A stretch of DNA of 64,000 bases from a virus, in the IMG/VR virus record IMGVR_UViG_3300032242_003148, positions 101,607 through 165,606 of that record; one strand, 5' to 3'. Shown here in pieces: positions 16,291 to 34,632 of this stretch; the stretch's first letter is position 1, and every line of letters starts with the position of its first letter. Both the position numbers and the translations under genes were made by a program. The notes under the pieces were generated by a model. The model had not been told where the DNA came from and ran no database searches. It saw only the letters and a list, made by a program, of their open reading frames with translations.

Positions 16291-18153
16291 CTATTCTTTG
16301 AAGTTACTATGCTCACCAAAACCAACGCCGTGAGCAAGCCCGGGAATAGGGCTTGGTCCCCTGATATCAGAAGTAGCGCCAGCGTTAACAGCATTGCTAA
16401 ATCTCTTTGCCAGGTTTGTGCTATACAATACATGCATAAAGTCATCTGCGTGCTCTGGTACGTCTAATAATCTTACCATATGGGGTTCAAAATGTGGAGG
16501 GTCGTCATGCACAACCACAGATTCTATACCATGCTCTGCCAAGTCTTGCATAACTGAAGATGTTACTCTAGTACCTATGGTATAATGTAACTCTGGTTTT
16601 TCCAAATACTTACCATAAGCTAAGTCTGATCTAACTGTTTTGCTACTTGCCCTGGGTACGTAATTTTTCTCTAGAGCTGAGTAAGAAACAATCTGGTCTG
16701 GTAGAAAATCGCCTAGTCCTTCGTTATCTGTTATCTTTACATGATCAATGGCAGATCTAGCAATAAGTTCAAAATTTCTTCTGTTAACCCCTAGGTTACC
16801 CTCATCAAAAGCCCGCTTCATAGCCTGCGCATAATAATTTCGACCCTCTCCAATTCCCTTGTATCTAACAACTTCACTAGGATCAATTAGCCCAGAGCTA
16901 AGCACATCTCCCTGCTCTACTTTATCACCAACCTTAACTTTAGGTTCTTGTCCGACACCTATATAGTATTCTGTATCTCCTATCTTTATAAAATATCCAC
17001 CAGCTGCGGCGTGTTGAACGCTAGACACAACCCCATCTTCTTGAGCTAGTGGTGCTTTGTTTAAAAAAGTTTTTGGGATGTTAGCTAGTTGGTTAATCAT
17101 TTTAAACCCTGACACGCCACCTAGAGAAGTAGCAGCTCCGCCGCCATGACGAAGTTTCATAGCATACTCTGTGAGGGGTTCACTAACTGCTGTACCAGCA
17201 ACCAGTCCAATATAACTATCAGGAGCGGCTAAACCTTTTTCTCTTCTCCCCACACACAGCTGACAAACTGCACCGAAGTGACTATTATTGCTGGCTCTGC
17301 ACGTCATGGGGGAACGGATTAAAATTTTGTTAATATTTTGTTCCTTTAAGTCATTCAACATTTTTGCGGTGATCTCATTATTCCTTTTATACCCGCCAAC
17401 AGGAGCAGCTAGAAAGGCCCCAACAGAATCTTTGTCTGTGGTGGGTACTGTAATCCCATTAGTAGTGCCGCAATCATGTTCTGTGATTTGTAAATTCATC
17501 AAGGCTCTAGAAAACTGTTTGGAAGAATATCCTCCCTGAGCCACACCAACCTTTTTAACAACTTCACCAGAACGAGTACCAAAAGATGTCACAAGATACT
17601 CAGGAAGAGAAAGTCCTTCAGCAAAAGAGCTTTTAACAGGAATATCCATTTTAGGATTTCCTTCTGCATCCACAACAATCCCCTGTGTTGCTATGGTAGA
17701 GCGATATTGTGCTGGTGATCCTCTAGAACCCGCCAAAATAATTTTAGCTAGTGACTTATTATTCTTAAGCCCCTCATCAAGAATGGTCTTGTTGGTCTCC
17801 TCCATCAAGGAGTTATATTTATCAAAAATTCTTTGATTTTTAACGCTTTCAGAATCTTTGGTTTTATGTACTTTCTCCTGAAACTCTTCGAATTTGTCGT
17901 AAAGCTCTTTTGTATTAATAGGAGAAACCAAATCTTTTAATGTAATAGATGTTCCTTGTCTAGTGGCAATCTCAAAACCTAAACGGGTAAGATCAGAGGC
18001 GATCTTGCTATAATTTTCTGGCTCTTGTTCTACTAGCTTACTAAACAGATTATTGATTCCTTTTTTATCAAGAACCTGACCATCTATCATGTGATGTAAG
18101 TGTTTAGGAGTATACTCTTTCAGAAGTATACGTCCTACAGTAGTAACGGACAT
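16291..18153 (-). CDS. rpoC: Phage multisubunit RNA polymerase, beta' C-terminal part
   Basis: GSRGS, bridge helix FAEGLSLPEY...GGY, EHDCGT, RSPMTC, VCQLCVG, trigger loop EPLTEYAMKLRHGGG. Confidence 0.92.
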   Translation of the reverse strand: MSVTTVGRILLKEYTPKHLHHMIDGQVLDKKGINNLFSKLVEQEPENYSKIASDLTRLGFEIATRQGTSITLKDLVSPINTKELYDKFEEFQEKVHKTKDSESVKNQRIFDKYNSLMEETNKTILDEGLKNNKSLAKIILAGSRGSPAQYRSTIATQGIVVDAEGNPKMDIPVKSSFAEGLSLPEYLVTSFGTRSGEVVKKVGVAQGGYSSKQFSRALMNLQITEHDCGTTNGITVPTTDKDSVGAFLAAPVGGYKRNNEITAKMLNDLKEQNINKILIRSPMTCRASNNSHFGAVCQLCVGRREKGLAAPDSYIGLVAGTAVSEPLTEYAMKLRHGGGAATSLGGVSGFKMINQLANIPKTFLNKAPLAQEDGVVSSVQHAAAGGYFIKIGDTEYYIGVGQEPKVKVGDKVEQGDVLSSGLIDPSEVVRYKGIGEGRNYYAQAMKRAFDEGNLGVNRRNFELIARSAIDHVKITDNEGLGDFLPDQIVSYSALEKNYVPRASSKTVRSDLAYGKYLEKPELHYTIGTRVTSSVMQDLAEHGIESVVVHDDPPHFEPHMVRLLDVPEHADDFMHVLYSTNLAKRFSNAVNAGATSDIRGPSPIPGLAHGVGFGEHSNFKE

Positions 18154-18154
18154 A

Positions 18155-32221: not shown

Positions 32222-33943
32222 ATGTCAAATCTAAGTATCAATCCCTCCACAGTAGAGCTGGGTCCACAGTATACTGTGCAATATCAGCCTGGATATTATG
32301 CAAGTAGAGATATTGTTGTGCACACCACAGCTATTGGTACAGTTGGTAGTACGTCTCTGATAGTAGATAATGCTTCTAATCTATCTAGAGGAGACCTGGT
32401 AGAGGCTTACGGAATACCAGAACAGACTAATATATCAAATATCTCTGGCACTACAATAACTCTTAGCAGCGCGATAACACAAACAATACCTATAGGCACT
32501 GCGCTATATATAGGGTCAATCTCAAAACCATCAAGCTGCATACTTCCTTCTGCTATATCCCCAAGCCTAGACCTAGGTTCTCCTATAGCTCCTATAGATC
32601 TCAGCTGTCATTATGCTTTTCCGCAAGTATATCTAACTCCCCCCATTTATAATGCTCCACAAACATTTGTGGCTTGTGAAGATTTTACAGCTTCTGTGGA
32701 CATTAGCCTACGAAATGCCATAACAGGGAATATAACGGCCACACCCACAAGTTCTCCACATTGTGGATTAGCCATCACAGGTCTTTTAGACGTAAACACC
32801 TGTGCCAATTTTACAGCCACGTCAAATATAACCTTTTCAGGTGCGGCACAAAACAGCTCATTAAAATTAACTGCAAGAGGACAACCGGATTGTGGTGTAG
32901 ACATTAAAGGTAATATAGATGTGCAAGCCTGCTCGGCATTTACATCTACTGTTAAATTTGATGTACCCGACGCTATGGCCGGCTCGGTTTTTTCTGTAAC
33001 TCCTAAAGGCCCATCTGACTGTGGGTTAGACCTAGACCTAGCCCTAAAATTAAATTTAAATGCGTGTGAAAAAATAACACCTATTATTAATTTTACATTT
33101 CCAGAAGCAATGGCTGGATCTACAGCTGTTTTTACTGCATCTCAAAACCCCCCTGACTGTCCTATTGAACTAGACCTTAACTTGGCACTAAACGCATGTA
33201 CAACATTCACTGCCGGCGGGGGAATAAGTGTTGGTGGTGGTGGCGCTAGCGGGTTTATTGGAGTTAGGGCGAACAAACCGCCAGATTGTGGCGTTTTTCT
33301 TGCTGGAAATATAAATGTACCAGCTGCGTGTACAGGGATTACCGTGGGTGGTAATGTGGGTATATCGGGCGCCGCGCAAGGCAGCATTACGTTAACGCCA
33401 TCTGGAGGCCCACCAGGTTGTGGGGTGCAGCTTGGCGGGAATATACATGTTAACTGCCCAACCGCTAACAGCTCCTTTCGTCCTGCTGGGGCAGCATGTA
33501 CTGGCGCAATCAGACTTGTCAGCACCGGAGGAGGGAACGCATGCGGAATTGACCTACAGGGTGACTTAAAAATACAAGCCTGTACTAAATTTTCAATAGA
33601 TACCAGTGCGTATCAATTTTTACATCTAGCGGCCATACGTAAACCAACATTTGCTATAACACAAATGGGTTCGGCAGATGATAGCGGTCAATGTAATCTG
33701 AAGTTAACAGGAACAATGGATATTCCATGCCCATCAATTCTGCCCTCCGAAATCAACTGGGGCGGGATAGTTAATAGCGCAGCCACAACGTTTAATATAG
33801 TTGTAGACCCCGTGAACTGCAATCAGTTTAAATTAAAAGGAAATGTAGCATTTGATGGGGCATGGACAAACGTAACAATTTGTAACAATGGAGTAACGTC
33901 AACTATGCAAGTTTGGGCCAGGGCCCTATCAACCACAAATTAA
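32222..33943 (+). CDS. Cys-periodic repeat protein, possible fibre/appendage
   Basis: About nine ~43-aa repeats AC..F...PDCG..L.G.I. Confidence 0.65.
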   Translation: MSNLSINPSTVELGPQYTVQYQPGYYASRDIVVHTTAIGTVGSTSLIVDNASNLSRGDLVEAYGIPEQTNISNISGTTITLSSAITQTIPIGTALYIGSISKPSSCILPSAISPSLDLGSPIAPIDLSCHYAFPQVYLTPPIYNAPQTFVACEDFTASVDISLRNAITGNITATPTSSPHCGLAITGLLDVNTCANFTATSNITFSGAAQNSSLKLTARGQPDCGVDIKGNIDVQACSAFTSTVKFDVPDAMAGSVFSVTPKGPSDCGLDLDLALKLNLNACEKITPIINFTFPEAMAGSTAVFTASQNPPDCPIELDLNLALNACTTFTAGGGISVGGGGASGFIGVRANKPPDCGVFLAGNINVPAACTGITVGGNVGISGAAQGSITLTPSGGPPGCGVQLGGNIHVNCPTANSSFRPAGAACTGAIRLVSTGGGNACGIDLQGDLKIQACTKFSIDTSAYQFLHLAAIRKPTFAITQMGSADDSGQCNLKLTGTMDIPCPSILPSEINWGGIVNSAATTFNIVVDPVNCNQFKLKGNVAFDGAWTNVTICNNGVTSTMQVWARALSTTN

Positions 33944-34632
33944 CTCTCAGGAATCTCTACCACAGAATCCAAAAAAGTTTGATGGTCTATCCATATTTTT
34001 TTACCATGACCGTCCTCTACTAAGCGGTATAACTTTCCATCATCACCTTTTCTACAGTTTTTTACAAAGAAGTTTACAACACCTATTGTTTCAGCTTCTA
34101 CAGTTTGTATAGGATCCATTAATCCGAACTGGCTCTCGTTAACACTTCTAGAGCTATCAGGAATACTCTCAGTACTTCCTATACCGCCCTCTCCCATCTT
34201 ACTCACCTTGTGGGCAAGCATATATTGCTCCATAGGGTTAACTCCCTCAATATTTTGACTAAGCGCATTACCAACAAACACGCTTTTGATTTGCGGTGTA
34301 AAGAACCCACTGTGGAGCCAGGATAGATTTCTTTTCTGTCTGAGCTTCATCTTAGCCTTCATTTGAATTTTTCCAGCATCATGTTCAATGTGCTCTTTAA
34401 CATAGTCCTCGGCTCCCAAGAATTTTGAGTACGCCAGGTTATCACGATCATCAGGACTAATCTCACGGCTATGCACCTTGAGTAGTTTTCCAGTGGTTTG
34501 CAATAACACCTGAGGGCTCACGTGATTAACACTCATTCCTAGAGTCTTGCCCATAACACCGATGTCTAATCGAATGTTGCCAAAGTACTCTTTAATCTTC
34601 TGAATTTTTTCTGCTTTAGAGGTGGTATCCAT
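33940..34632 (-). CDS. rpoB: Phage RNA polymerase, beta middle fragment (fork/Rif region)
   Basis: DDRDNL; LSQNIEGVNPMEQ...KVSKMGEGG; SVNESQFGLMDPIQTVEAETIG match beta DDIDHL / SQFMDQNNPLSE / CPIETPEGPNIG. Confidence 0.88.
   Translation of the reverse strand: MDTTSKAEKIQKIKEYFGNIRLDIGVMGKTLGMSVNHVSPQVLLQTTGKLLKVHSREISPDDRDNLAYSKFLGAEDYVKEHIEHDAGKIQMKAKMKLRQKRNLSWLHSGFFTPQIKSVFVGNALSQNIEGVNPMEQYMLAHKVSKMGEGGIGSTESIPDSSRSVNESQFGLMDPIQTVEAETIGVVNFFVKNCRKGDDGKLYRLVEDGHGKKIWIDHQTFLDSVVEIPES

Follow-up and report, generated by a model that had tools for sequence, protein, structure and literature searches.

Can four genes scattered over 18 kilobases (kb) encode the parts of a single RNA polymerase, and how might such a layout have arisen? 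The question is raised by the final 64 kb of IMG/VR virus record IMGVR_UViG_3300032242_003148 (hereafter the window: 64,000 nucleotides, positions 101,607 to 165,606 of a record of 165,606 base pairs (bp) that is estimated to be ~85% complete), which derives from an uncultured phage of at least 166 kb. An initial annotation had read these genes as three successive parts of the beta subunit and two of beta', the end of beta being fused to the start of beta'. The genes, together with the catalytic parts of the fused one, are as follows:

29722..30375, plus strand: beta-N gene, 217 amino acids (aa; P0001), an intact open reading frame (ORF)
33940..34632, minus strand: beta-middle gene, 230 aa (P0002), an intact ORF with a match to Pfam Rpb2_3 (3.9e-6)
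19319..22306, minus strand: beta-C::beta'-N fusion gene, 995 aa (P0003), with matches to Pfam Rpb2_6 (3.4e-57), Rpb1_1 and Rpb1_2
20930..22012, minus strand: beta double-psi barrel and hybrid-binding domain, fusion residues 99-459, the stretch matched by Rpb2_6
19577..19594, minus strand: beta' catalytic motif ADSDGD, fusion residues 905-910, placed by the motif itself and lying in the stretch matched by Rpb1_2 (856-928)
16291..18153, minus strand: beta'-C gene, 620 aa (P0004), with matches to Pfam Rpb1_5 (6.2e-15), Rpb1_3 and Rpb1_4

All four ORFs are intact at these positions, each with its own ATG and stop codon, and matches from Pfam, PHROG and phmmer bear out the identities first given to them. 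The beta-N protein corresponds to the N-terminus of Escherichia coli beta up to ~residue 278, the position of the beta-i4/SI1 insert in the lobe; it has no Pfam match, and its similarity is to the N-terminus of a phage family of full-length beta (PHROG 24349, positions 63-146 of 1191) as well as to cyanobacterial and Bacillus subtilis beta (residues ~50-211; phmmer, 1.5e-7). The beta-middle protein is equivalent to E. coli beta ~279-622, that is, the end of the lobe and protrusion and the fork domain with its GEGG motif, and is matched by phmmer to E. coli beta 496-597. When aligned with Salmonella rpoB plus rpoC, the fusion chain runs from ~E. coli residue 623 to the beta C-terminus, which it reaches at residue ~538 of its 995 (the VDY...NLIP landmark occupies residues 22-41), and continues through a linker of ~10 residues into beta' up to just past the catalytic barrel. 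It also matches beta and beta' structures in the PDB, and the Rpb2_6 and Rpb1_1/Rpb1_2 matches place both double-psi barrels on this one chain, as had been claimed.

The catalytic residues are in order. The GDK...GAKG stretch keeps both active-site lysines (K322 and K330), with D321, K322, G328, K330 and G331 invariant across 15 sequences, and ADSDGD keeps all three metal-binding aspartates; the residue ahead of this triad is Gly where Asn is usual (GADSDGD, window 19577-19594, minus strand). The first ~25 residues of beta' and its four-cysteine zinc ribbon are absent from all eight family members compared in the same Salmonella alignment. The site of the zinc-ribbon deletion, which is common to the whole family, falls at window ~20500-20560 (minus strand). 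The beta'-C protein is alignable to Thermus, E. coli and cyanobacterial beta', and in the Thermus alignment the bridge helix, the second zinc site and the trigger loop (M..H) are all recognizable in it. It begins at ~E. coli beta' 571, about a dozen residues ahead of the cyanobacterial rpoC1|rpoC2 cut.

The pieces map in order on Salmonella rpoB plus rpoC, and the claim that they are collinear and abut without overlap is borne out against five natural single-chain homologues of 1,419-1,527 aa (from Salmonella phage Arash, Vibrio phage D69 and three metagenomic relatives). In a MAFFT alignment with these, both junctions are clean: at each, the end of one piece and the start of the next align to adjacent residues of the long chains, with none lost or added. 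By BLASTP, residues 7-206 of beta-N fall on residues 9-210 of Arash gp206, residues 13-229 of beta-middle on 240-469 and residues 10-987 of the fusion chain on 483-1517, the last with 32% identity over 98% of its length. Arash and D69 have one ORF, of 1,525 or 1,527 aa, that spans the content of three window genes and is followed by a beta'-C gene of ~606-609 aa. The record holds a single beta barrel and a single beta' barrel, each of the four pieces occurs once per genome in the five relatives where all were located (G001-G005), and all four relatives that are 93-100% complete have one beta barrel each. We conclude, at a probability of roughly 85%, that the four genes together encode one bacterial-type RNA polymerase and that this phage has no other.

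The two cuts within beta fall at positions that are informative in themselves. Junction 1 coincides with the beta-i4 insertion site in the lobe, where insertions are tolerated and the insert is dispensable (PMC2939025); junction 2 falls, in the Salmonella alignment, at E. coli beta 622/623, beyond the fork domain and ~25 residues ahead of the VDY strand. An AlphaFold model of the N-terminal 470 residues of a fused relative (P0133; mean predicted local distance difference test score 91) superposes on bacterial beta (template modelling score 0.75, E 4e-27) and places junction 1 between two helices (loop 220-225) and junction 2 between two strands (loop 448-459), so that both cuts are predicted to lie in surface loops. 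Because the bacterial lobe and protrusion draw segments from both sides of junction 1, beta-N and beta-middle must fold together, and we infer that jointly they build the lobe and protrusion. A complex prediction for beta-N with beta-middle and beta-C gave a score that was not specific against one control and is counted neither way.

The same layout recurs beyond this record. We compared nine independent metagenome assemblies from IMG/VR (G001-G005, G011-G013 and G006, the last a deep lineage): all four pieces were located in the first five, and the fusion gene, beta-N and, where the record reaches, beta-middle in the other four, the order and strands of the located pieces being identical in all nine. 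In G006 the small proteins are 48-51% identical to those of the window and their genes are separated from the fusion gene by 21 and 36 kb. In close IMG/VR relatives (67-92% identity) the 995-aa gene recurs with an identical start position, and the beta'-C protein is 68-90% identical in G001-G005. Beta-N is a separate ORF in 12 related records (51-88% identity) and has no internal stops, and beta-middle is one in 9 (48-93% identity). A comparison of split points, proposed with the initial annotation, found the termini of both small proteins at the same positions in seven aligned relatives, including the end of beta-N in 7/7, with polymerase motifs such as the GEGG of the fork invariant. At least 120 clusters at 90% identity are, among the matches listed, all beta-C/beta'-N chains, 53-100% identical and mostly ~995 aa long. 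The ratio of nonsynonymous to synonymous substitution rates (dN/dS) of the fusion gene is 0.023 against G001, and the beta-N and beta-middle genes have dN of 0.06-0.10 with dS saturated; by these estimates selection on the polymerase genes is strongly purifying. One relative contig, IMGVR_UViG_3300035188_001379 (184,465 bp; L015 and L018), in which the fusion gene leaves one contig end and resumes at the other, is probably a complete circular or circularly permuted genome.

Which of these features are peculiar to the four-gene phages becomes apparent at the level of the family. The beta-N protein, searched against 1.84 billion cluster representatives, gave 1,095 matches at an E cut-off of 0.001, of which the best 150 were surveyed for chain architecture. 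Among these 150 are 40 single chains of 1,447-3,350 aa that combine beta-N, beta-middle, beta-C and beta'-N, their length beyond ~1,450 aa falling within aligned segments. The beta/beta' join is present in 40/40 of them, as in the cultured Arash and D69, and beta'-C sits on the long chain in 0/150. Since all 40 long chains have the join and none has beta'-C, both the join and the cut in beta' are family traits. The four-gene polymerase is a further-split member of a large fused-and-split phage family and not an independent invention of this genome. Of the independent split architecture proposed initially, nothing is peculiar to this clade except the two further breaks in beta and the scattering of beta-N and beta-middle.

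We place the origin of these cuts by a maximum likelihood tree of the long-chain region rooted with Salmonella beta plus beta'N. The 995-aa class is monophyletic (support 100) and sister to the fused P0133/P0134 (92), with Arash, D69 and P0135 branching earlier, so that the split clade is nested within fused forms; the label "split" for most rows of this tree means ORF length and start, the separate small genes having been verified in nine genomes. A tree of the beta-N domain alone (150 rows; FastTree on 207 columns) likewise gathers the stand-alone beta-N representatives in one clade (99) next to fused forms. Because the split clade sits inside fused forms in the rooted tree, both cuts within beta are derived from a fused ancestor and most simply arose once, on the stem of the clade. 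The opposite polarity, in which the many-piece state is ancestral and the long beta::beta'N chains of Arash-like phages arose by later gene fusion, finds an antecedent in the pre-cellular multi-subunit idea proposed for phiKZ-like enzymes (Iyer et al. 2021, PMC7824862) and some room in the long outgroup branch and the weak deep nodes of the beta-N tree. We consider it improbable: fused forms are paraphyletic around a monophyletic split clade, the Salmonella outgroup beta and the matched solved bacterial beta chains are unbroken across both sites, and fusion would have had to restore exact collinearity several times from genes on opposite strands. In a clade separate from that of the window, four proteins (P0183, P0233, P0238 and P0279) consist of beta-N plus beta-middle and end exactly at junction 2, a site that seems to have been cut there independently.

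Another explanation detaches the two small proteins from the enzyme, as relics or as proteins with another role, and has the polymerase work without lobe, protrusion and fork. In its favour, a beta-N-like domain heads ligase, NUDIX or phosphatase proteins in another clade. It is nevertheless a poor contender, since both proteins are conserved at 48-93% identity with their polymerase motifs (fork GEGG) invariant, both were found wherever a record reached far enough, and in the bacterial structures matched by the P0133 model the fork belongs to the active-site cleft. The proteins in question are long ORFs under translation table 11 (P0232 at L057:8001-11459, P0264 and P0164), headed by a domain 35-37% identical to beta-N. 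This is followed by GNAT, LigD phosphoesterase and ATP-dependent ligase domains in P0232, by NUDIX in P0264 and by a PNKP phosphatase and a pyrophosphatase in P0164; no other polymerase piece was found within 8 kb of P0232.

The pieces might also be rejoined into a longer chain by split inteins or trans-spliced introns, which the richness of this family in inteins makes worth weighing. All inteins seen in relatives are, however, contiguous, at conserved motifs and away from both junctions, while the termini of the pieces themselves fall on homologous residues, with no surplus in alignments with the long chains and the relatives. Moreover, each gene has its own ATG and stop, and an Rfam scan of the window returned one transfer RNA (tRNA) only and no intron. 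The absence of intein or intron signatures at the breaks was thus correctly noted at the outset, and rejoining is highly improbable. The inteins occupy fusion residue 324 in the GDK motif (P0019, P0034), residues 907-910 in the aspartate triad (P0080, P0098), ~residue 153 of beta-middle in the GEGG fork motif (P0126-P0132) and the interior of beta-N (P0136, P0139). The longest single chain (P0257) has 3,350 aa, and several inteins in one gene are therefore implied. The last alternative, an assembly artefact or pieces of two different polymerases, has next to no probability, because the same layout in nine other independent metagenome assemblies and the purifying selection exclude misassembly and decay, and because the single barrel set of the record and the one beta barrel in each of the four near-complete relatives exclude two polymerases, with one copy of each region per genome and pieces that tile without overlap.

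We posit the following course of events for the one-enzyme reading. The starting point would be the two-chain enzyme of the family, in which beta is joined head-to-tail to the first part of beta' and the rest of beta' is separate, the cut in beta' lying just after the barrel near the site used by cyanobacteria and jumbo phages. On the stem of the clade the long chain would then have been cut twice more, in the lobe at the beta-i4 site and a little beyond the fork domain, and the genes for beta-N and beta-middle would have moved 7 and 12 kb away, one of them to the other strand. Genome rearrangement, the cause given in the initial annotation, is a fair name for this dispersal of the small genes; we found no trace of the mechanism, and PHROG and Pfam scans of ~20 neighbouring ORFs showed no homing endonuclease near the cuts. 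The four polypeptides would fold together non-covalently, beta-N and beta-middle interleaving into the lobe and protrusion, to give an enzyme without alpha, omega and the beta' zinc ribbon that is directed by phage sigma-like factors. That the four chains assemble into one active enzyme is very likely. We think it unlikely that the scattering is itself functional, with beta-N and beta-middle as separately expressed, exchangeable modules whose timing or partners set when and how the polymerase acts; on that reading, the beta-N module heading the ligase, GNAT, NUDIX or phosphatase proteins of the other clade could tether nucleic-acid-processing enzymes to the polymerase. By analogy with Arash, the enzyme would be made late, packaged in the virion and start transcription on entry; packaging is somewhat favoured over its absence.

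Several points weigh against this reconstruction. The record being ~85% complete, a second polymerase in the missing part is excluded only by way of the relatives. The four-chain enzyme is known here from its genes, and host alpha or omega could be borrowed. The rooted tree has a very long outgroup branch, the 150-row beta-N tree is weak at depth, and the packaging is borrowed from Arash, whose homologues are only 26-32% identical.

As for the partners of this core, alpha and omega (PF01000, PF01192) gave no match in the record or in three complete relatives, with controls recovered in 14/14 cases. Sigma region 2 docks on the beta' coiled-coil, and a segment alignable to this coiled-coil of E. 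coli beta' is present in the fusion chain. The same genome encodes, outside the window, a 211-aa sigma-like protein (G000:C1:86527-87162, minus strand; L056) with a Sigma70_r3 match (4e-10) and 32% identity to Arash gp10; a homologue of gp13, a structural protein of Arash, is encoded nearby. Three more distant four-gene relatives have an extracytoplasmic function (ECF)-like sigma of 192-213 aa with regions 2 and 4, namely G005 (L021:576-1154), G002 (L022:554-1195) and G004 (L023:630-1214), and none was detected in G001; the gene in G005 adjoins a homologue of the DnaB-like helicase ORF of our genome. In our genome the position matching that of this ECF-like sigma is taken by an unrelated 182-aa ORF, which shares only 9-21% identity with the sigma proteins of the relatives and is not one itself. 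A 90-aa ORF at window 48337-48609 (minus strand), with a weak helix-turn-helix resembling sigma-70 region 4 (22 bits, just below the Pfam cut-off), may be a minimal sigma or transcription factor.

The signals for expression are less distinct. A scan of the window for sigma-70-type promoters gave 43 sites against 42 expected by chance, and so does not confirm the promoters that the initial annotation assigned to two of the pieces. An AT-rich motif is conserved upstream of beta-middle in the relatives, with 14 matches in the window against 7 expected, and is not clearly recurrent. The four polymerase gene starts have no clear Shine-Dalgarno sequence and are A/T-rich upstream; the host may make little use of such sequences. 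The fusion gene and beta'-C belong to one minus-strand run, in which homologues of the major capsid protein and of structural proteins of Arash are also encoded.

The interval from the fusion gene to beta'-C contains one further feature:

18155..19091, minus strand: two small ORFs of 199 and 126 aa

Neither has a Pfam, PHROG or Atlas match; the 199-aa ORF has same-position homologues in two deep clade members (52% and 33% identity), and the fused sister locus likewise has two small ORFs between the long chain and beta'-C. Whether they belong to the polymerase is uncertain. Directly upstream of the fusion gene (window 22360-23698, minus strand) are three tandem ORFs that have their first ~30 residues in common, a leader that matches the start of a different ORF downstream of a ~750-aa structural gene in L029 and L030. 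In these two deep four-gene members, the fusion gene is immediately preceded, on the opposite strand, by a SNF2-family helicase gene (L029:7108-8508, L030:7500-9290); a Swi2/Snf2 helicase is linked with polymerase genes in phiKZ-like phages as well (Iyer et al. 2021, PMC7824862). The beta-middle gene stands alone on the minus strand, convergent with a 573-aa ORF, which we rejected as a portal since it shows no similarity to that of Arash. It is divergent from a deoxycytidylate (dCMP) deaminase gene (34949-35395, plus strand), the only identification that the PHROG and Pfam scans of the ~20 neighbouring ORFs returned, and a tRNA gene follows 2 kb on (37491-37562, plus strand).

The nearest cultured relatives are Salmonella phage Arash (gp206 of 1,525 aa and gp216 of 606 aa; OQ632216) and Vibrio phages D69, D148 and D181, which belong to the same family with 26-32% identity across all pieces. 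As in the window, beta is joined to beta'N in Arash, beta' is cut at the same place, the zinc ribbon is absent and the downstream order is fusion gene, beta'-C, large structural protein and, further on, the capsid gene; the gp10-type sigma-like protein is another shared trait. Unlike Arash and D69, which keep all of beta in the long chain, the phage described here has beta cut at two further sites and thus four chains. The paper on Arash lists the genes as beta and beta' without mention of a fusion, and reports gp206, gp216 and gp10 as abundant in purified virions, with the highest spectral count for gp206, gp216 among the five highest and gp10 covered to 100% (PMC10585845).

The polymerases of phiKZ and AR9 are likewise phage-encoded bacterial-type cores of several polypeptides without alpha or omega, have beta' divided directly behind the barrel, close to the cyanobacterial site, and include one enzyme carried in the virion (PMC7598289). 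They differ in that each barrel has a chain of its own, the virion and non-virion enzymes form two paralogous sets and a sigma factor is lacking (PMC7598289), whereas the phage studied here has one set, the beta/beta' join with both barrels on the fusion chain, and sigma-like genes; the distinction that the initial annotation drew thus stands. Its polymerase is also closer to full-length phage beta and beta' PHROGs (1e-47 and 1e-34) than to jumbo-phage families (1e-18 or weaker). The cut in beta' near rpoC1|rpoC2 is shared with cyanobacteria and plastids (P0004 residue 25 corresponds to cyanobacterial rpoC2 residue 5-12), but beta in cyanobacteria is whole and not joined to beta'. A fused rpoB-rpoC is attributed to Helicobacteraceae and Wolbachia (Zakharova et al. 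1999, as cited in PMC7483510); there too beta runs straight on into beta', showing that a functional enzyme can carry the join, but the chain is a full-length beta-beta' that works with alpha and omega, whereas here beta' is cut after the barrel and beta twice. An E. coli polymerase engineered to be split where the archaeal and chloroplast enzymes are (Severinov et al. 1996, as cited in PMC7483510), together with the behaviour of beta-i4, the site of junction 1, speaks for the modularity of the large subunits, though those are laboratory constructs. The jumbo-phage review (PMC7598289) and Iyer et al. (PMC7824862) treat only enzymes with barrels on separate chains, a paper on RNA polymerase-encoding Caudovirales makes no mention of fusion in its clade, and our full-text literature searches found no description of this layout or of a phage beta/beta' fusion.

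The family is nonetheless large, with more than 1,000 clusters at 50% identity, cultured Salmonella and Vibrio phages included, for a layout without a published description that we could find. Annotation pipelines will miss beta-N and beta-middle and give the fusion chain the name "beta" or "beta prime". With its four chains and its beta/beta' join, and without alpha, omega and the zinc ribbon, this polymerase is a natural experiment in modularity, the conserved cut sites of which mark where the enzyme tolerates breaks. If the reading given here is true, a bacterial-type core with its own sigma factors, perhaps carried in the virion, would constitute a strategy unlike those of phiKZ and N4.

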